NCBI GenBank assembly: GCA_017524185.1
Contig: JAFWUG010000071.1
Location: 3,445 to 67,444, forward strand
Direction of reading: 5' to 3'
DNA length: 64,000 bases
Source: Bacteroidales bacterium
GTDB taxonomy: Bacteria > Bacteroidota > Bacteroidia > Bacteroidales > Tenuifilaceae
The stretch's first letter is position 1. Each line of letters opens with the position of its first letter. Made by a program: the position numbers and the translations under genes. Below the pieces are notes generated by a model. The model was not told the DNA's origin, did no database searches, and saw only the letters and a list, made by a program, of their open reading frames with translations. Of this stretch, positions 20,082 through 50,807 are shown piece by piece.

Positions 20082-20660
20082 TTATCGTTTAATGCGGTTA
20101 AACAGGGCAATCAGATAGCCCAAAGCGATGAATGCTCCAGGGGCCAGCACAAATACCAAAATGGCATCGGTTTGGATAAGCCTGAGGCCGAACACCGAGC
20201 CTGCACCCAGCAACTCGCGCACAGCGCCCAGCAACGTGAGCGCAAGCGTGAATCCCAAGCCCATGCCTATGGCATCGAGCAGCGAGTCGAACGCGCTATT
20301 TTTGTTGGCAAACGCCTCGGCACGACCAAGCACCACGCAGTTCACCACAATAAGCGGTATGAATATACCCAACGTTTCGTAGAGCGACTGCGTGTAGGCC
20401 TGCATCAGCAGGTCAATTATAGTTACAAAAGTAGCTATCACCACTATATAGGAGGGTATGCGCACCTTGTCGGGGATGAATCGGGCAATGAGCGATATAA
20501 CCACGTTGGAGCCCATCAGCACGAACATGGTGGCCATGCCCATGCCCAGCCCGTTGAGGGCCGAGCTGGTGGTGGCCAACGTGGGACACATGCCCAACAC
20601 TATCACAAAAATGGGGTTCTCGCGGATTAGTCCGCGTGTGAGATTATTCAAGCGGTTCAT
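20082..20660 (-). CDS. rnfE: Rnf complex subunit E
   Basis: 192 aa with [18 protein letters not shown]. Position is between rnfG and rnfA. Confidence 0.9.
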
Positions 20661-42992: not shown

Positions 42993-43475
42993 CTACTGAG
43001 CCAACTCAGTGGTTGCAGAACGCACCAACAGCGTGGTTGCAGTGGTGTTGTTGTCGGGCGACATGATATTGAAATACAACCGCTGACTTGCGTCAACATC
43101 GGCTTTCTGGTCCTGCGTGAGAGTGTAGCGCACGGTTACAACGGTGTCGTCCACCACCATAATGCCATTGCCATCGTCGCCCTCGTAGTGCAGATGCGCC
43201 ACGGCGCTATAGTTGAACAATGTGTCGTGCATAAGTGCCTCCCAGAACTGCAAATTGCTCCACAGATTGGAGTGTTCAACCGAGCAGCGCAAATGTAGCT
43301 GCATCTCAGCACAATCGAGCAAGGGGTCGATATAGAGCGTGTCGGGGATACCGCCAACCACCTTTAGGTGAATGCTTTCAATGGTGTTTATGTTCTGTTT
43401 TTCGTCGAATTTACATCCAACCGCAACAAATAGCAACAACAGAACGAGCAGTAGGCTTGTAATGGCTGTACGCAT
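42993..43475 (-). CDS. Hypothetical lipoprotein, tandem paralog A
   Basis: 160 aa with lipobox FVAVGC. It shares about half its residues with 43562-44029, including the block LHLRCSVEHSNLWSNL. Confidence 0.7.
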   Translation of the reverse strand: MRTAITSLLLVLLLLFVAVGCKFDEKQNINTIESIHLKVVGGIPDTLYIDPLLDCAEMQLHLRCSVEHSNLWSNLQFWEALMHDTLFNYSAVAHLHYEGDDGNGIMVVDDTVVTVRYTLTQDQKADVDASQRLYFNIMSPDNNTTATTLLVRSATTELAQ

Positions 43476-43561
43476 GGCTTTCTGCTTTTTGGTTGATGCC
43501 GTACACGTTACAAATATCGTGCTAAAGTGCTTAATTTCAACTACAAATTACGCACAAAACG

Positions 43562-44029
43562 CTATTTCTCAGCCCAATGAGGTAGCACCCAAAGCGTGTC
43601 GAAAATGCTATTTGGCGGCGAAATTAGATGAATATAGAGCTTTTGGCTAAAACCGGAATCTACAGTCATGCCCATGGGTATGCGATAGCCCACGCTAACA
43701 GCGGTGTCCTTGGTGATTGGAATGCCATTGCCATCGTACCCCTCATAAAACAGCGATGCCACAGCAGCATAGTGGAACACCGTGTCGCCCACCTTAGTGT
43801 TCATAAAACTAAGATTGCTCCATAGGTTTGAATGCTCCACCGAGCAGCGCAGATGCAGTTTTACTGCAGCCTCCAAACGAACGCTATCGAGATACAACGT
43901 GTCGGGGAGGGGCGATTTCAATTTCAGATGTATATACTCAACAGAACTAACCTCCTGCTTTCCCGATAAATCGCAAGCAGCAATTGCAAAAAACATCAAG
44001 CCTGATAGCAGTAGTATAGATATACGCAT
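43562..44029 (-). CDS. Hypothetical lipoprotein, tandem paralog B
   Basis: 155 aa with lipobox FAIAAC. It is a paralog of 42993-43475. Confidence 0.7.
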   Translation of the reverse strand: MRISILLLSGLMFFAIAACDLSGKQEVSSVEYIHLKLKSPLPDTLYLDSVRLEAAVKLHLRCSVEHSNLWSNLSFMNTKVGDTVFHYAAVASLFYEGYDGNGIPITKDTAVSVGYRIPMGMTVDSGFSQKLYIHLISPPNSIFDTLWVLPHWAEK

Positions 44030-44116
44030 AACGCACTGCTTTTTAGAAATTTAACAACGCTACAAAGGTAATAAAAAAAAACACAAATGACCACCCGACA
44101 AAGAGCGGGCAAAAGC

Positions 44117-44965
44117 CTACAGCACCTTGTTCTTGGAAAAGCGGCTGGTTATGAAACGACCACCAATGCTGAGTATTAGCACAATAAACGTGAGCACAAC
44201 GGCAGCAGCGTATGCCCTGTTCTGCACCTCTATCTGGGGTGCGCTGAGCTGAAAGAAAACGCTAAGAGGGAGCGTTGCCGTTTGCTGCGACAAGCTGGTG
44301 GGTATGCTGTCGGAAAAACCAGCGGCAAACATCACACCCGCTGCATCGCCTATGGCGCGGCCAATGGAAAGCAGCGTGGCCGTGGCTATGGCGGGGGCAA
44401 TCTGGCGCATAACCACGCCAATTGTCTCAATGCGCGTGGCTCCAAGGCTGTAGGAGGCCTCCAGTATCTCCTTGGGAAAGGTTTTAGCCACCTCATCCAT
44501 GGAGCGAATCAGAATGGGAATGATGAGCAGCGCCACCACTATTATACCGCCCAGCAACGATGCCCTGAGCCCAAAAAATATCATCACGGTGAAACCGAAT
44601 GCGCCATAAACAATTGATGGTATGCCAAATAGCACATCGAACGCCAACCTGGCAACGTAGCCCAACTTGGAATCTTGCCGCAGATAGACGTTCAGGTAGA
44701 ACACCACCGGTATGCTAAACACCAATCCCAGCAGCGTGCTTGCGCCCACAATGTAGAGCGAGCCAACAATGGCGTTCAAAAAACCTCCCTCCTTGCCAAT
44801 GTAGAAACCACCACCGGGCAGCGAGGTAATCATCTCCCAGGTGAGCACTGGTATGCCACGCTTGAATACGCTAAAAATCACGCTCAGCACAAAGAATAGT
44901 ACCACGGCCACCGAGAACAGCATCAGACCTCGGAATATGCGTTCTTCTATAAATTTACGTTTCAT
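44117..44965 (-). CDS. pstA: PstA-family ABC permease
   Basis: 282 aa with 6 TM segments and a binding-protein-dependent transport motif region. It follows the pstC-like gene. Confidence 0.8.
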   Translation of the reverse strand: MKRKFIEERIFRGLMLFSVAVVLFFVLSVIFSVFKRGIPVLTWEMITSLPGGGFYIGKEGGFLNAIVGSLYIVGASTLLGLVFSIPVVFYLNVYLRQDSKLGYVARLAFDVLFGIPSIVYGAFGFTVMIFFGLRASLLGGIIVVALLIIPILIRSMDEVAKTFPKEILEASYSLGATRIETIGVVMRQIAPAIATATLLSIGRAIGDAAGVMFAAGFSDSIPTSLSQQTATLPLSVFFQLSAPQIEVQNRAYAAAVVLTFIVLILSIGGRFITSRFSKNKVL

Positions 44966-44988
44966 ACAATTGCCTATATTCTATTTGT

Positions 44989-45888
44989 TTATTTATCCTT
45001 GGCCATGCGACGAAGCACAACCCGCGAACCCAGGTTGAATACCAGCACCACAAAGAACAGGATAAAAGCTGCGAACATCAATGCGGCCTCATAGAGCGGC
45101 TGCGATAGCATCTCGCCATAGTTGTTGGCAATGAGCGCAGGTATGGGATAGCACGCTTCGAGCAACGAGCGCGGTGCCTTGGGCAGATTGCCGCAAACCA
45201 TCAGCACGGCCACCGTTTCGCCAAGCGCACGGCTAATGGCCAGCACCACCGAGGCCAAAATACCTGGTGCAGTTTTGAGCAGCACAACAAACTTGGTGGT
45301 TTGCCATCGTGTAGCGCCCAAGGCCAACGACGATTCGCGCAAATCGTTCGACACGCTAGCAAATATCTCAATGAAGAGACTCACCAGCAGCGGCAAAATC
45401 ATCACGCTGAGCACAATGCCGCTGGCCAACACAGTGTAGCCACTCGATATGCCATTGGCCGAAAAACGCGGTCCAAGATAGTCGGCTATGAAAGGCACAA
45501 TCACCAGTGTGCCCCAAACGCCGTAGATTACCGACGGAATGCCCGCCAAAATATCGAGCAACGGATAAACATAGCGGCGCACAGCGCTATGCGCATACTC
45601 CATCAAGTAGATGGCCATGAGCATAGCCACGGGCAACGCTATGAGTACGGCAATACCCGTAACCCATAGCGTCCCCATGATGAACGGAAAGAAACCGAAC
45701 TGATTACGCAAAGGCTTCCAATGCGATGCCGACAGCAGTTCCCAAAGCGAATGCTCCTGCAAAATGGGAGCCGACTTCAGATAAAGTCCAACGCCCATAA
45801 CCACCACCAGCAGCAACGATAGCACAGTAAAGACAAGCATCAGCCGTCCTGCCATGCGATCTTTGAAAAGCCTGTATCTCGATTTCAC
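44989..45888 (-). CDS. pstC: PstC-family ABC permease
   Basis: 299 aa polytopic protein with SLALGATRWQT in the EAA loop. Confidence 0.8.
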   Translation of the reverse strand: MKSRYRLFKDRMAGRLMLVFTVLSLLLVVVMGVGLYLKSAPILQEHSLWELLSASHWKPLRNQFGFFPFIMGTLWVTGIAVLIALPVAMLMAIYLMEYAHSAVRRYVYPLLDILAGIPSVIYGVWGTLVIVPFIADYLGPRFSANGISSGYTVLASGIVLSVMILPLLVSLFIEIFASVSNDLRESSLALGATRWQTTKFVVLLKTAPGILASVVLAISRALGETVAVLMVCGNLPKAPRSLLEACYPIPALIANNYGEMLSQPLYEAALMFAAFILFFVVLVFNLGSRVVLRRMAKDK

Positions 45889-45918
45889 TTCCTTAATGCC
45901 ATTTGTCTGCCTTCCCTG

Positions 45919-46899
45919 CTATTTCAGCATTTCAAGGCTACGATTCACTTTTTCGGGACTCATGCCAATATAGCCCTGGGGTACATTCTCTTTCTGACCC
46001 TCGGTGAGTATATAGCGCAAAAAGTCGATAACTACAGGATTTTTGGGTATCCCCTTCGACACCAAATAAAGATCGCGGGCGGGAGGCGAGGGATAGCGAT
46101 CATTGGCTATGGCCTCCACAATCAGGTCTTTGTTGTCGTAGAAATTTTCCTCGGGGTCAATTTGCCCATTGCCATTCACATCGATGGGCAACACCAACAG
46201 ACCATCGTGGGTTTTCTTGGTGTTAATATCGTAGGCATAGCCTATGTTGTTAAACCCAATACTGTTGGGGTCTTTCTGCACGGCGGCAGCCAAACCAGGG
46301 TCGCCAAACACAGCCACACCGTTCAAGTCTTCCTGACGCTGACCAAACCACAGCGCCCATGTTTCGGCAGCCCCGCAAGCATCGGTGCGGTTGTAAACAG
46401 TTATGGGTGTCGCATCGGTAGTGCCAGCCAGTTGCCCCCAAGTGGTTATGGTCTGGTCGATCCACAAGCCATGAGCGGCCTCACGGGTTAGACCCTTTTT
46501 TAGCAAATCGGCTAAAATAGGATTGTTAGCATTGATGGTAGGCACCACAGCGTCCTTGGCAACAGCAAAAGGCACAGCCCCTTTATCGAGCTCTACCTGC
46601 GCAATCTCGCGCGACACCATGCCAAAATCTACCACACCTGCCAGCGCATCGGTGATACCCTTGCCTGCTCCACCGGCTGAGATGTCGATTTTTACTTCGG
46701 GGTGCAATTTCTGATACTCTGCTGCCCATTTAACTGCCAGCGGATACAGCGCAAAAGCACCCGACAAAGAAATCTCGTTGCTATAGGTGCCAGTGCTATC
46801 GTTGGCGTTTTTTTTCTTTCCGCCAATGCACGATGTGGCTCCGCCCAGCACCAATGCGGCAACACTGATGGCCGCAATGCATAGTAATGTTCGTTTCAT
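45919..46899 (-). CDS. pstS: PstS-family (PBP_like_2) substrate-binding lipoprotein
   Basis: Lipobox GGATSC, with LSGAFALYPLAVKWAAEY and SAGGAGKGI. It lies 44 nt downstream of cysH on the same strand. Confidence 0.8.
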   Translation of the reverse strand: MKRTLLCIAAISVAALVLGGATSCIGGKKKNANDSTGTYSNEISLSGAFALYPLAVKWAAEYQKLHPEVKIDISAGGAGKGITDALAGVVDFGMVSREIAQVELDKGAVPFAVAKDAVVPTINANNPILADLLKKGLTREAAHGLWIDQTITTWGQLAGTTDATPITVYNRTDACGAAETWALWFGQRQEDLNGVAVFGDPGLAAAVQKDPNSIGFNNIGYAYDINTKKTHDGLLVLPIDVNGNGQIDPEENFYDNKDLIVEAIANDRYPSPPARDLYLVSKGIPKNPVVIDFLRYILTEGQKENVPQGYIGMSPEKVNRSLEMLK

Positions 46900-46943
46900 C
46901 GTAAATAATTAAGAATTAGGTATTTGGTTTAGTTTGTTTTGAC

Positions 46944-47660
46944 TTATGAATTATTGCGATGCAGGCCACACTCGCGATGGTCGGGCGACTCCCACCACCA
47001 CCGACCAGAACGTATATCGTCGCCAGGTTTCACAGCGCGGGTGCATGGTTCGCAGCCTATGCTCGGAAAACCCTTGTCGTGCAACTTGTTATAGGGGACA
47101 TGATGCTCGCGGATATAAGCCCAAACCTGTTCCTCGCTCCAATCTATTAGCGGGTTAACCTTAACCAAGCCGTGCATAGCATCCCACTCCACGGCCTGCA
47201 TATCGTGGCGCGTAACCGACTGCTGACGGCGAAGCCCGCAAATCCAAGCATTGCAGCCTGCAAAAGCCCGCGCGAGCGGCTCCAGCTTGCGCACCTGGCA
47301 GCAGCGATGGCGGCTCTCAATGCTATTATAGAACAGGTTGATACCCTCGGCGCGCACCATCTGCTCAACAGCCTCGTGCTGCGGAAAATAAGTGGCTATA
47401 CTGATGCCATAGTGCATGGCTGTTTTGTCGATTAGCTGATAGGTTTCGGGGAACAACCTCCCAGTGTCGAGGGTAAAAATGCGGACCTTGGGGTCTATCT
47501 TTACAGCCATATCGGTAAGCACTTGATCCTCAATGCTTAGGCTCGACGACAGGGCAATACCATGCCCAAACGTGCGAAGCGCGGCAGCCATGATGTCGTG
47601 CGCTGATGCACCTTGAAGCGACTGGTTGAGTTCGGCGGCTAATTCGGCGGTGGGTTTCAT
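46944..47660 (-). CDS. cysH: Adenylyl-sulfate (APS)/PAPS reductase CysH; Fe-S (APS reductase) subtype predicted
   Basis: 238 aa. A CC pair (RHRCCQVRK) plus CxxC (SIGCEPCT) are the cluster ligands of APS reductases. The C-terminal ECGLH motif is present. Confidence 0.85.
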   Translation of the reverse strand: MKPTAELAAELNQSLQGASAHDIMAAALRTFGHGIALSSSLSIEDQVLTDMAVKIDPKVRIFTLDTGRLFPETYQLIDKTAMHYGISIATYFPQHEAVEQMVRAEGINLFYNSIESRHRCCQVRKLEPLARAFAGCNAWICGLRRQQSVTRHDMQAVEWDAMHGLVKVNPLIDWSEEQVWAYIREHHVPYNKLHDKGFPSIGCEPCTRAVKPGDDIRSGRWWWESPDHRECGLHRNNS

Positions 47661-47675
47661 GCGTCGTGCTGATGC

Positions 47676-48950
47676 TTATTTAATCATACCCGCACCCACG
47701 GTCTCGTTGGTATCGGGGTCGATGAATATAAGGCTTCCAGTGGTACGATTGTCGGCGTAGCGGTCGAACACCAGCGGATTAGCGGCACGCAGGGTTATCT
47801 CGGCTATGTCGTTCATGCGCAACTCGCCCACGTTAGTTTCGAGTTCCAAAGTGTTGATGTTACGCCTATGGTTGATGGCACTAACCATGCCCATGGTTTC
47901 GGCGGTTGCCTGGCGCACCACGTATTTGCTGCGGGGAAGCAGGGGACGCTCGTTGAACCAGCACACATCAACCACAACCTCGCGCTCCACCTGTGGCTGC
48001 GGCTCATCGGCACGTACCAACAAGTCGCCACGGCTGATGTCAATGTCATCGGTTAACTCAATGGTGATGCTCGATGGTGCATAAGCCTCATTCATGGGCG
48101 TTTGTGCCATACCAATGGCCTTCACCGTGCTCTCCAAGCCCGATGGCAGCACCCGCACACGGTCCTCCATGCGGAGCACACCTCCAGCCACACGTCCAGC
48201 GTAGCCCCTAAAATCGGCAAATCTGTCGCTAATGGGACGTATCACATACTGCACAGGCATTCTGAAATGCTCGCCTCCCAACTTGTTGGGCATTGGCACT
48301 GTTTCCAAAAAATTTAGCAGCGGCTTGCCTGTGTACCAAGGCATATTCTCTGAGGCGTTCACCACGTTATCGCCCTTTTTGGCACTAATGGGAATGAACT
48401 CCACGTTAGGAATCTGCAGCACCTCCGACATGCGCCTGTAGGCAGCAACAATGTCGTTGTAAACCTGCTCCGAATAGTCAACCAAGTCCATCTTGTTGAT
48501 GGCCACCACAATGGTGGGTATGCCCAACAGACTCGAAATATAGCTGTGGCGAATGGTTTGCTCCAGCACACCATGGCGAGCATCAACCAATATGATCGAC
48601 AAATCGGAGGTAGACGCTCCGGTTACCATGTTTCGGGTATATTGAATATGTCCCGGAGTGTCGGCTATGATGAATTTACGGCGTGGCGTAGCAAAATAGC
48701 GGTAGGCCACGTCGATGGTGATGCCCTGCTCGCGCTCAGCGCGAAGGCCGTCGGTGAGCAAGGCAAGGTTCACATCCTCGTTGCCACGCGATTTTGAGGC
48801 GGCCTCCACCGCCTCCAATTGATCCTCGAATATGGATTTACTATCGTAGAGCAAACGCCCTATGAGCGTGCTTTTGCCATCATCGACGCTGCCTGCGGTT
48901 GAAAATCGCAGCAGTTCCATGTCGAGGTATCCTCTTGTGCTATCTAACAT
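47676..48950 (-). CDS. cysN: Sulfate adenylyltransferase subunit 1 (GTPase) CysN, without a fused APS kinase domain
   Basis: GSVDDGKSTLIGRLL, DTPGH and NKMD are present. At 424 aa there is no CysC extension. Confidence 0.9.
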   Translation of the reverse strand: MLDSTRGYLDMELLRFSTAGSVDDGKSTLIGRLLYDSKSIFEDQLEAVEAASKSRGNEDVNLALLTDGLRAEREQGITIDVAYRYFATPRRKFIIADTPGHIQYTRNMVTGASTSDLSIILVDARHGVLEQTIRHSYISSLLGIPTIVVAINKMDLVDYSEQVYNDIVAAYRRMSEVLQIPNVEFIPISAKKGDNVVNASENMPWYTGKPLLNFLETVPMPNKLGGEHFRMPVQYVIRPISDRFADFRGYAGRVAGGVLRMEDRVRVLPSGLESTVKAIGMAQTPMNEAYAPSSITIELTDDIDISRGDLLVRADEPQPQVEREVVVDVCWFNERPLLPRSKYVVRQATAETMGMVSAINHRRNINTLELETNVGELRMNDIAEITLRAANPLVFDRYADNRTTGSLIFIDPDTNETVGAGMIK

Positions 48951-48976
48951 TGCTTTGTGTGGTGTCTTTTGGGTGT

Positions 48977-49882
48977 TTAGAAGTATCCCGCTTTTTTACG
49001 ATCCTCCATGGCTGTTTCGGAGCGCTTATCATCGGCACGGCTACCGCGCTCGGTTACACGGGTGGCGGCAATCTCCTCAATTATATCCTCCAGCGAGTGA
49101 GCCGCCGACAGGGTTAGCCCTGTGCAGGTGATGTCGCCAATGGTGCGGCAGCGTACCTGCTTGGTTATCACCTGCTCGGTGGGTTTGCGGGGGATGCATG
49201 GCTCGGCTGCGAGCCACTGCCCATCGCGCTCGAACACCTCGCGCTGATGGGTGAAATATAGGCTTGGCATGGGAATTTGCTCCTGATAGATATACTGCCA
49301 AACGTCCATCTCGGTCCAGTTGGAGATGGGGAACACTCGGAAATGCTCGCCCATAGCCTTTTTCCCATTATAGATGCTCCAGAGCTCGGGGCGCTGATTT
49401 TTGGGATTCCACTGCCCAAACTCGTCGCGATGGCTAAAGAAGCGCTCCTTGGCTCGGGCCTTCTCCTCATCGCGACGCGCTCCGCCAATGGCGGCATCGA
49501 AACGATGCTGCTCAATGGTGTCAAGCAGGGTAACGGTTTGCAGCTTATTGCGGCTGGCATAGTAGCCAGTTTCCTCCTTCACGCGGCCTTTGTCGATGCT
49601 CTCCTGCACTGAGCCCACAATAAGTTCTGCACCAATGCGTTGAACCAGCGCATCGCGATAGTCGAGGGTTTCCTGAAAATTATGTCCCGTGTCGATATGC
49701 AGCAACGGGAAAGGCAGCCGGGCTGGGTAGAACGCCTTGTAAGCTAGGTGTGTAACCACAATGGAGTCCTTGCCGCCCGAGAACAGAATCACTGGGCGTT
49801 CGAACTGAGCCGCTGCCTCACGCAGCACATAAATCGACTCGGCCTCAAGCTCTTTTAGGTGTGTTATTTTGGGCTTATCCAT
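48977..49882 (-). CDS. cysD: Sulfate adenylyltransferase subunit 2 CysD
   Basis: The PAPS_reduct fold has ILFSGGKDS. I placed the start at ATG 49882 (MDKPKITHLKELEAESI). The longest ORF runs to 49978. Confidence 0.9.
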   Translation of the reverse strand: MDKPKITHLKELEAESIYVLREAAAQFERPVILFSGGKDSIVVTHLAYKAFYPARLPFPLLHIDTGHNFQETLDYRDALVQRIGAELIVGSVQESIDKGRVKEETGYYASRNKLQTVTLLDTIEQHRFDAAIGGARRDEEKARAKERFFSHRDEFGQWNPKNQRPELWSIYNGKKAMGEHFRVFPISNWTEMDVWQYIYQEQIPMPSLYFTHQREVFERDGQWLAAEPCIPRKPTEQVITKQVRCRTIGDITCTGLTLSAAHSLEDIIEEIAATRVTERGSRADDKRSETAMEDRKKAGYF

Positions 49883-49955
49883 ATCTGATGTATAAACAAT
49901 ACACCACCCAATGCCACAAGGCTCAGCCTCCTGATTCGGGCATTGGGAAGCAGGC

Positions 49956-49963
49956 GCAAAAAT
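49956..49963 (-). promoter_or_regulatory. -7 box TATTTTTG (with TTTG 19 nt upstream) for the cysD operon
   Basis: TAnnTTTG on the minus strand, 74 nt upstream of ATG 49882. A -33-like TTTG lies at 49983-49986. Confidence 0.4.
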
Positions 49964-50010
49964 AGCGTTTTTCTGCAATAATCAAATGAGATATGTGAGG
50001 GTAGATTTAT

Positions 50011-50028
50011 ATACCAAACGTTAGGTAT
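50011..50028. promoter_or_regulatory. Operator-like palindrome ATACCAAACGTTAGGTAT (17/18 symmetric)
   Basis: It lies upstream of the cysD promoter. It is a near-identical copy of the perfect palindrome at 50737-50754. Confidence 0.6.
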
Positions 50029-50037
50029 TTTCACACC

Positions 50038-50685
50038 CTAACCGAACACCGACAGGTCGAAAACGCCCATGCGCAAGGCAGCCATCACGGCATCGTGGGC
50101 GGTTTTCACGCCCAGTTTTCTGAATATATTCTTACGATGCGTGTTGACGGTGTGTCGGCTCAAGAAGCGCTCTTGCGCTATCTGGCGCGTGGTTTTGCCC
50201 TGCGCAATGCAGCGCAAGATTTCAATCTCGGTGTAGGTCAAATCCTCCGTAACGCCATGCTCCATGTCGTGTTTTTGCAGACTGAGCAGCATTTCCGTAG
50301 CCCTATGGCACATGTAGCGCTCGTGCTTAAGCGCATACTCGATGCCTGCCATCACAGCCTGCTCCGACGAATCTTTGAAAACCACGCCTACACAGCGCGT
50401 TTCGTAGGCAATGCGCCGCAAAAAACTCACCGACAGCCTATCGCTCAGCAACAGCCACGAAGCATCTGGAAATCTGAGCGTTAGCCCAATAAGCGAGTCC
50501 TCGCTATCGAAATCGAGCAGCTTAAAATCGAGCAACACCACGGCTTTAGGGTACAACACAAGCAAACCCGTGAGTTCGGCACTAGTATTGACCCTATGCT
50601 GTATGCAATCGGGGAAAGCACTCAGCATGGCACTAAGCCCTTTGCGCGTAAGCTCCTGATTATCTGCAAGAATAAAGCAAGTCAT
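50038..50685 (-). CDS. LuxR/FixJ-type response-regulator-like transcription factor (atypical receiver)
   Basis: 215 aa. The C-terminal LuxR HTH is LTYTEIEILRCIAQGKTTRQIAQERFLSRHTVNTHRKNIFRKLG. The receiver-like N-domain has ADN in place of the usual acidic pair. No kinase gene is adjacent. Confidence 0.8.
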   Translation of the reverse strand: MTCFILADNQELTRKGLSAMLSAFPDCIQHRVNTSAELTGLLVLYPKAVVLLDFKLLDFDSEDSLIGLTLRFPDASWLLLSDRLSVSFLRRIAYETRCVGVVFKDSSEQAVMAGIEYALKHERYMCHRATEMLLSLQKHDMEHGVTEDLTYTEIEILRCIAQGKTTRQIAQERFLSRHTVNTHRKNIFRKLGVKTAHDAVMAALRMGVFDLSVFG

Positions 50686-50702
50686 GGCGTTGTTATCGGG
50701 TG

Positions 50703-50710
50703 CAAATATA
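50703..50710 (-). promoter_or_regulatory. -7 box TATATTTG for the LuxR-type gene
   Basis: TAnnTTTG on the minus strand, 18-25 nt upstream of ATG 50685. Confidence 0.35.
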
Positions 50711-50736
50711 GCCTTTTTACATCAATACACACAAAA

Positions 50737-50754
50737 ATACCAAACGTTTGGTAT
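50737..50754. promoter_or_regulatory. Operator-like perfect 18-bp palindrome ATACCAAACGTTTGGTAT
   Basis: It lies in the divergent luxR-type/pstB-like intergenic region. Confidence 0.6.
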
Positions 50755-50799
50755 TAAAAAGACATCGCCTATGGTATTGTTATAGCACCAAAAACGCTG

Positions 50800-50807
50800 T
50801 ATCTTTG
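50800..50807 (+). promoter_or_regulatory. -7 box TATCTTTG for the pstB-like gene
   Basis: TAnnTTTG, 68 nt upstream of ATG 50875. Confidence 0.4.

Follow-up and report, generated by a model that had tools for sequence, protein, structure and literature searches.

The subject of this analysis is a pair of 18-bp palindromic sites and the regulator gene between them, located in a stretch of 64,000 nucleotides (the window) from a bacterium of the Bacteroidales (Tenuifilaceae; assembly GCA_017524185.1, contig JAFWUG010000071.1), where genes for sulfate activation and reduction adjoin genes for a Pst-like ABC importer. An earlier note, made from the letters of the window, had described two such sites, one a perfect palindrome and the other identical to it at 17 of 18 positions, which bracket a LuxR-type gene. 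The reading of the sequence and a pattern search bore out the description of the sites, and the gene, on the minus strand, indeed lies between them. The genes, sites and promoter boxes on which the following analysis is based are listed here with their window positions:

44117–49882, minus strand: predicted target operon cysD-cysN-APS reductase-PstS-like-PstC-like-PstA-like (NCBIfam, Pfam)
48977–49882, minus strand: cysD, start most likely at 49882
47676–48950, minus strand: cysN (NCBIfam, Pfam)
46944–47660, minus strand: APS reductase of the Fe-S type, cysH (NCBIfam, Pfam)
45919–46899, minus strand: PstS-like binding protein (PstS family, 113 bits versus a cut-off of 207)
44989–45888, minus strand: PstC-like protein (NCBIfam, Pfam)
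44117–44965, minus strand: PstA-like protein (NCBIfam, Pfam)
50038–50685, minus strand: orphan NarL/FixJ-family regulator of 215 aa, with a divergent receiver domain and a GerE/LuxR helix-turn-helix
50875–51741, plus strand: PstB-like ABC ATPase, divergent from the regulator gene
50011–50028: site A of the cysD promoter (site 1), ATACCAAACGTTAGGTAT, a 7-2-7-type inverted repeat matching the palindrome at 17 of 18 positions
50737–50754: site A of the pstB-like promoter (site 2, or A2), ATACCAAACGTTTGGTAT, a perfect palindrome
49957–49964, minus strand: −7 box TATTTTTG of the cysD-cysN-cysH-pstS-pstC-pstA operon
50800–50807, plus strand: −7 box TATCTTTG of the pstB-like gene
50703–50710, minus strand: candidate −7 box TATATTTG of the regulator gene

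Promoters of Bacteroidetes follow a consensus with TAnnTTTG at about −7 and TTTG near −33 (PMC7366714), and all three −7 boxes in the list match TAnnTTTG exactly. At the cysD promoter, 46 nt lie between ATACCAAACGTTAGGTAT and the box TATTTTTG, one fewer than the 47 nt that had been counted before, and at the pstB-like promoter a recount agreed with the previous value, as ATACCAAACGTTTGGTAT ends 45 nt before the box TATCTTTG. On its other side, ATACCAAACGTTTGGTAT is separated by 26 nt from the candidate box TATATTTG of the regulator gene, and 9 nt lie between the stop codon of this gene and the start of ATACCAAACGTTAGGTAT. When up to three mismatches were allowed, three matches were found in the window, versus about 0.03 expected by chance from shuffled sequences. 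In the whole assembly of the window's own genome (G000; 2.52 Mb, 174 contigs, 51% G+C, 97.6% complete), ATACCAAACGTTAGGTAT and ATACCAAACGTTTGGTAT are the only copies at up to two mismatches, and they are also the only TACC-N8-GGTA sites that have a TAnnTTTG box 43–47 nt further on. A chance origin of the palindromes was rejected on these counts in the window and the assembly. The genome-wide search that had been proposed was thus carried out and revealed no further copy at up to two mismatches; the genes upstream of which additional sites had been suspected, encoding sulfite reductase and cysK, are both lacking in G000. The third match in the window (20365–20382, three mismatches) was dismissed, as it lies inside a coding sequence and has no −7 box.

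When 39 unique promoters were aligned on the −7 box to obtain an operator consensus, a second element became apparent, aAAAT.CC-N8-G.gATTg, which is separated from the palindrome by 4–5 nt and from the box by 22 nt. The right end of this element occupies the −33 position, where most of the promoters have ATTG and not TTTG. In the window, the following features correspond to this region:

50760–50777, plus strand: AGACATCGCCTATGGTAT, the proximal site (B) of the pstB-like promoter, separated by 5 nt from site A and by 22 nt from the −7 box
49987–50004, minus strand: putative degenerate site B of the cysD promoter, CTACCCTCACATATCTCA, weak and placed by consensus alignment
49983–49986: TTTG, a −33-like element of the cysD promoter

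The right end of AGACATCGCCTATGGTAT together with the adjacent TG (50776–50779, ATTG) sits at the −33 position of the pstB-like promoter. With the box centred on −7, the centre of site A comes to lie near −65 and that of site B near −43, and the distal site A is better conserved than the proximal site B. Based on these alignments, the palindrome is predicted to be the distal half of a composite two-site operator of about 40 bp, whose weaker second site overlaps the −33 region.

The earlier note had also proposed to look for the sites in related genomes, and both sites, together with the 45-nt spacing, are kept in a genome of the same genus (G001), whose regulator is 60% identical. The gene order in G001 is the same as in G000; the spacer between the pstB-like gene and the regulator gene carries the identical 18-mer, 45 nt from a −7-like box, the spacer between the regulator gene and cysD carries ATACCATAGGTTTGGTAT, also 45 nt from a −7-like box, and the box of the regulator gene itself is the weaker TACCTTAG, 28 nt from the site. 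Between the two genomes, the 18-mers are the longest invariant blocks of both intergenic regions, and the flanks have diverged. Genomes from two other families (G028 and G031) encode regulator orthologues that are 33% and 31% identical, respectively. In G028, the layout is cysN<cysD and then regulator-cysK-pstS-pstC-pstA-pstB-cysH, with cATACCTAAAAATAGGTAg directly after the regulator stop codon and 45 nt before a box CAACTTTG in front of cysK; in G031, the layout is pstS-pstC-pstA-pstB-regulator-cysK, with ATACCTCATTTGGGGTAT 45 nt before a box CAATTTTG, again in front of cysK. The comparison of the sites of G000/G001, G028, and G031 defines ATACC-N8-GGTAT as the site core. Since pstB and pstSCA share one cluster in G028 and G031, pstB belongs with pstSCA, and the previously suspected connection of the separated pstB-like gene with the cys-pstSCA string is supported: in both genomes, pstB lies inside the cys-pstSCA cluster. 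Same-family relatives of G000 besides G001 gave generic NarL-type matches only. A homologue in G034 (27% identical), which has neither a cys context nor a site beside its gene, was treated as a paralogue.

When one genome per species was scanned, relatives of the regulator were detected on at least 581 contigs, and the best 80 of these (42–60% identical) were used as loci, mostly from Prevotella and Bacteroides and including the cultured B. salyersiae, B. cellulosilyticus, B. intestinalis, B. fluxus, and Xylanibacter ruminicola. When the distances from TACC-N8-GGTA sites to perfect TAnnTTTG boxes were counted within 4 kb of the regulator genes in these loci, they peaked at 44 nt (20 cases) and 45 nt (19 cases), with a second peak at 17 nt (10 cases). 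The genes behind the 44–45-nt sites are pstB-like genes, the regulator gene, cysK, metY (O-acetylhomoserine sulfhydrylase), mnmA, and moeB-like genes, and the exact 18-mer ATACCAAACGTTTGGTAT also precedes cysK or metY in several Prevotella. Further genes with sites encode ThiS/ThiF/JAB sulfur-carrier components, Cys_Met_Meta_PP enzymes, RidA, and a thioredoxin-like protein, and in other families the sites precede cysJ-cysI, cysK-cysJ-cysI, or an operon for a TonB receptor, an anaerobic sulfatase maturase, and a CysQ-like protein. The sites very often adjoin the regulator gene itself, and it is the norm in the family that the regulator's own site lies 44–45 nt from its box.

Several loci show individual arrangements. 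In Prevotella, the spacer between the pstB-like gene and the regulator gene (L046, 3855–3911; L054, 3855–3912; L136/L138) contains two separate palindromes at a distance of about 40 bp, so that each promoter has its own, 44–45 nt from the box; in G000 and G001, a single site is shared. In Bacteroides (L056, L058, L070, L089, L093, L100, and L103), a single palindrome is found in a divergent region. The box on one side, belonging to metY or mnmA, is 44 nt away, and the box on the other side, belonging to an S41 (GFO_1087-family) peptidase gene, is 17 nt away, so that a single site may serve to activate one of the two genes and to repress its neighbour. In other Prevotella loci (L061, 4938–6634; L064, 6049–7234; L137/L139), the regulon includes a ThiS-like carrier, a ThiF/MoeB-like adenylyltransferase, and a JAB peptidase, and the gene content points to a cysteine or homocysteine synthesis that depends on a sulfur-carrier protein and is under the same regulator. 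In L115 (G172:C13, 6780–11975), a site precedes genes for a TonB-dependent receptor, an anaerobic sulfatase-maturating enzyme, and a CysQ-like phosphatase, and the scavenging of organic sulfate esters may be a further function of the regulon. A gene for a PafA alkaline phosphatase also has a site upstream.

The connection between the site and the regulator was addressed by their co-occurrence in 151 genomes of the B. cellulosilyticus family and in 251 genomes across the order Bacteroidales, using the pattern TACC-N8-GGTA-N45-47-TAnnTTTG and, as control, the same pattern read backwards. Genomes with a match at E 1e-24 or better were counted as regulator-positive; many of the genomes are drafts, and the pattern is strict. 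In the family sample, in which about 29% of the Bacteroides/Prevotella genomes carry the regulator, the 44 regulator-positive genomes contained 72 pattern matches and 10 control matches, which is about 7-fold over control, and 29 of them had at least one match. In the 107 regulator-negative genomes, 11 pattern matches stood against 11 control matches. The odds ratio for the presence of the pattern is 16.9 (Fisher p 1e-11, ignoring phylogeny). Across the order, the unsplit count is near control (72 versus 59), and a signal emerges only when the genomes are split by regulator presence, with 24 matches in 21 regulator-positive genomes (control 7) versus 48 in 230 negative ones (control 52). Eight cultured carriers had 15 pattern matches versus 3 in the control, and these precede metY, mnmA, cysK, pstB-like genes, the regulator gene, and genes for binding proteins and ThiS. 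As enrichment of the architecture is confined to genomes with the regulator, the earlier nomination of the LuxR-type protein as the factor acting at the palindromes is supported at the level of sequence. At a threshold of E 1e-20, the regulator family comprises over 2,700 protein clusters; outside the Bacteroidales, a class-wide sample gave one weak match only, and judged from that sample the regulator is restricted to this order.

The GerE/LuxR helix-turn-helix of the regulator (residues 149–202) is recognized by PF00196 with 63.9 bits (cut-off 23.5), and an AlphaFold2 model (pLDDT 90.3) has a full (beta-alpha)5 receiver domain and a four-helix helix-turn-helix. The Pfam receiver model PF00072 gave no match to the regulator at E 0.01 or better, the CsgD family model NF007505 remained below membership (57.2 bits versus a cut-off of 250), and no LysR, Rrf2, ROK, or TetR domain was detected in NCBIfam and Pfam searches. 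Foldseek returned full-length matches to LiaR, VraR, ChrA, RcsB, and NarL (E 1e-11 to 1e-7), and VpsT and EvgA are also among the structural matches. Residue conservation was assessed in 83 orthologues. D8, D53, S81, and K104 are present in all of them, Ala takes the place of the first acidic residue, directly before D8, in 82 (motif I.ADNQ), and the recognition helix HT.NTHRKNIFRKL is nearly invariant. The previous assignment of the domain as a receiver that lacks the acidic pair must therefore be corrected, as only the first acidic residue is replaced and D8 is kept together with D53, S81, and K104. That no kinase gene is nearby was confirmed: no histidine kinase gene was found within about 10 kb in the window or beside the orthologues examined, and because no kinase is linked at any of these loci, the regulator is an orphan. 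A thiol-sensing Cys was considered and rejected, as C126 is Ser in 50 of the 83 orthologues. The residue pattern describes an atypical orphan member of the NarL family that is possibly still phosphorylatable.

We consider it likely that the palindromes are operator sites of the adjacent orphan NarL/FixJ regulator, and that this regulator would activate sulfur-assimilation genes. We infer that it binds the palindromes as a dimer, that it activates rather than represses, and that sulfur is the signal. Each of the high-affinity 7-2-7 sites (TACCAAA-CG-TTTGGTA) would be taken by a regulator dimer, and two dimers on the same face of the DNA, at sites A and B and 22–23 bp apart from centre to centre, would recruit or position the RNA polymerase with the Bacteroidetes primary sigma factor. 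Site 1 would activate the genes cysD-cysN-cysH-pstS-pstC-pstA, and site 2 would activate the separate gene of the pstB-like ATPase. Activation from both sites would thereby cause the enzymes and all four importer parts to be produced together, probably when usable sulfur is scarce. In other Bacteroidales, the same regulator–operator pair would control cysK, metY, cysJI, mnmA, and ThiS/ThiF-type genes. The switch of the regulator could be a phosphorylation of D53 by an unlinked donor, or it could be a ligand.

Several observations weigh against this model. The −7 boxes, and with them the site centres near −65 and −43, derive from the consensus, and site B of the cysD promoter is poor, with only its TACC half present (50000–50003), a TACC that is conserved in G001. 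The regulator promoter of G000 is only 26 nt from site A, not the usual 44–45 nt. The autoregulation via site 2 that had been considered before does not fit the usual family geometry; as 26 nt is out of register with both usual site positions, autoregulation in G000 is uncertain. The Fisher tests take no account of the kinship of the genomes, 15 of the 44 regulator-positive genomes have no exact pattern match, and a few regulator-negative genomes (e.g., G638, G661, and G693) have convincing-looking sites. The logic of sulfur limitation is also weaker in G000, which has no cysK, metY, or sulfite reductase, and a site that overlaps the −33 element would also suit a repressor.

The latter aspect can be developed into an explanation in which the same regulator acts at the same operator as a repressor, with site B blocking the RNA polymerase under an ample supply of sulfur or cysteine and site A contributing cooperativity only. 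Site B overlaps −33 in nearly all promoters, and the Bacteroides palindrome 17 nt from the divergent S41 peptidase −7 box as well as the window palindrome 26 nt from the regulator's own box would occlude the respective promoters. In other phyla, CymR and McbR are repressors of sulfur genes. However, it is the distal site that is better conserved, and its distance to the box is rigidly 44–45 nt over at least seven gene types and several families, a rigidity that is typical of stereospecific activation, whereas repressor operators usually vary in position. Furthermore, the −33 elements of the targets are mostly ATTG and not TTTG, as activator-dependent promoters should be, and both UhpA at uhpT and LuxR at −42.5 activate from the same layout. 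Activation is favoured because of this rigid spacing, the better-conserved distal site, and the weak −33 elements, and we regard repression as rather unlikely.

The convincing-looking sites in the few regulator-negative genomes would be accounted for if the palindrome were recognized by a different, unlinked transcription factor, with the LuxR-type gene being a bystander. This is very improbable in view of the co-occurrence data, in which the pattern falls to control level without the regulator, and of the frequent location of sites beside the regulator gene; the TACC-N8-GGTA shape suits GerE/NarL-type dimers, and no other regulator gene is common to the loci. We give next to no weight to the idea that the palindromes are RNA hairpins, such as a terminator of the regulator gene, or chance inverted repeats. 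The position of site 1 just past the regulator stop codon would fit a terminator, and no other terminator-like hairpin was found between the regulator gene and cysD. But the stem is A+T-rich, site 1 contains a mismatch, and no T run follows; site 2 is upstream of both flanking genes and cannot terminate either of them, and the terminator reading was rejected for the missing T tract and this position. Repeats of this kind are expected by chance only about 0.03 times per window, and across dozens of genomes it is the distance to promoters that is fixed, not the distance to stop codons.

If the palindromes are operators of a sulfur regulon, as we propose, the content of this regulon in the window's own genome is peculiar. 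As judged from genome-wide searches, G000 has neither cysK nor metY and G001 has no true cysK, and the sulfite reductase family NIR_SIR was found in none of the genomes G000, G001, G028, and G031. NrfA is present in G031 only, and since it is absent from G000, G001, and G028, it does not explain the missing reductase as an alternative sulfite reducer. Despite this truncated-looking sulfate pathway, cysDN, the APS reductase, and the Pst-like importer are retained and are under the predicted operator. The module of CysDN, APS reductase, and Pst-derived importer without a siroheme sulfite reductase is present in at least four genomes, which belong to three families. In the anion-binding loops of the PstS-like protein, SGAFA and ACGA replace the SGSTS and GSGT of solved PstS proteins, and an acidic residue is retained, with SRE for SRD. 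Judging from these loops, its substrate is probably not phosphate, and sulfate is not certain either. The PstB-like ATPase is the sole PstB homologue in G000 and, together with the pstSCA-like genes, makes up the only Pst homologues of this genome; in the absence of any other, it is the presumed partner of the PstCA-like permease. A more far-reaching proposal, which we regard as doubtful, combines two claims, namely that the regulator would be a kinase-independent sulfur sensor by means of its altered pocket (ADNQ and LDY.LFDF), and that the module would serve something other than ordinary sulfate assimilation. Both pocket motifs are invariant in the regulator family. If true, this would imply an unrecognised fate of sulfite, or an unrecognised importer substrate, in anaerobic Bacteroidales.

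Two further elements of the locus can be assigned to the ends of the operon:

49883–49952, minus strand: structured cysD leader (about 70 nt), folding into two hairpins (dG −29.1 kcal/mol, z −3.5)
44091–44112: terminator-like hairpin after pstA

The hairpins of the cysD leader may serve in attenuation or processing; the leader in G001 is G+C-rich and has a different sequence. A riboswitch or another known RNA in the intergenic regions was rejected, as an Rfam search of these regions matched no family and gave only a spurious snoRNA match at E 0.53. Read-through from the regulator gene into cysD is possible, as there is no terminator between them. Beyond the hairpin at 44091–44112, two paralogous small open reading frames (155 and 160 aa, 48% identical) are found at 42993–44029 on the minus strand. 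Neither of them matched a family, and both may be part of the transporter locus; in G001, too, a homologue is found after pstA.

The regulator shares with NarL and NarP the plan of a receiver domain and a four-helix helix-turn-helix. NarL binds 7-2-7 inverted repeats of TACYYMT heptamers (TACYYMT-N2-AKRRGTA) with a TACC core, and the dimer site predicted here likewise consists of two inverted heptamers 2 bp apart and has the TACC core in common. In contrast to NarL and NarP, there is no linked sensor kinase, the first acidic pocket residue is Ala, and the Pfam receiver model is not matched; the predicted regulon is sulfur assimilation and not anaerobic respiration, and the promoters are of the Bacteroidetes sigma type (−7/−33). 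A strong upstream site combined with a weaker site at the −35-equivalent position and a poor upstream promoter element is also the layout of UhpA at uhpT and of LuxR at the lux box. The similarity ends with the layout, as UhpA responds to sugar phosphate via the UhpBC kinase and LuxR to acyl-homoserine lactone, so that signals and target genes differ from those of the activation proposed here. In its role, the regulator resembles CysB of Proteobacteria and CymR, CysR, and McbR of Gram-positives, as one regulator would govern sulfate uptake, activation, and reduction together with cysK and metY. CysB also binds multiple adjacent sites upstream of −35. Unlike CysB (LysR), CymR (Rrf2), CysR, and McbR, the present regulator is from an unrelated protein family, has a different operator, and occurs in Bacteroidales only; by analogy, it may work like CysB without belonging to the LysR family. 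With VpsT and CsgD, which are both among its sequence or fold matches, it shares a receiver-like domain without a partner kinase, but the TM-score to VpsT is only 0.41, and the phospho-acceptor Asp, the Ser, and the Lys are retained in the regulator.

No earlier description of the regulator or the motif was found in the searchable full-text literature, which included a 2025 study of the B. thetaiotaomicron regulatory network but neither RegPrecise nor subscription journals, and the same literature contained no regulator of sulfur assimilation or of cysteine or methionine synthesis in Bacteroidales. The regulon that this predicted NarL-family activator with a 7-2-7 operator would govern was, judged from this literature, not previously assigned in Bacteroidales. 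What is gained is a candidate regulator family with a two-part operator, a fixed promoter geometry, and a small coherent target set that comprises cysDNH, the Pst-like ABC importer, cysK, metY, cysJI, mnmA, and ThiS/ThiF. As carriers such as B. cellulosilyticus, B. salyersiae, and Xylanibacter ruminicola are cultured and tractable, the prediction is directly testable. For the engineering of Bacteroides, the fixed operator–promoter geometry is also a candidate building block of a promoter that responds to sulfur. Bacteroidales dominate the human gut and the rumen, and the site–regulator pair recurs across gut and rumen members of this order. For the Pst-type transporter, the predicted operator provides independent regulatory evidence that it belongs to sulfur rather than phosphate metabolism.

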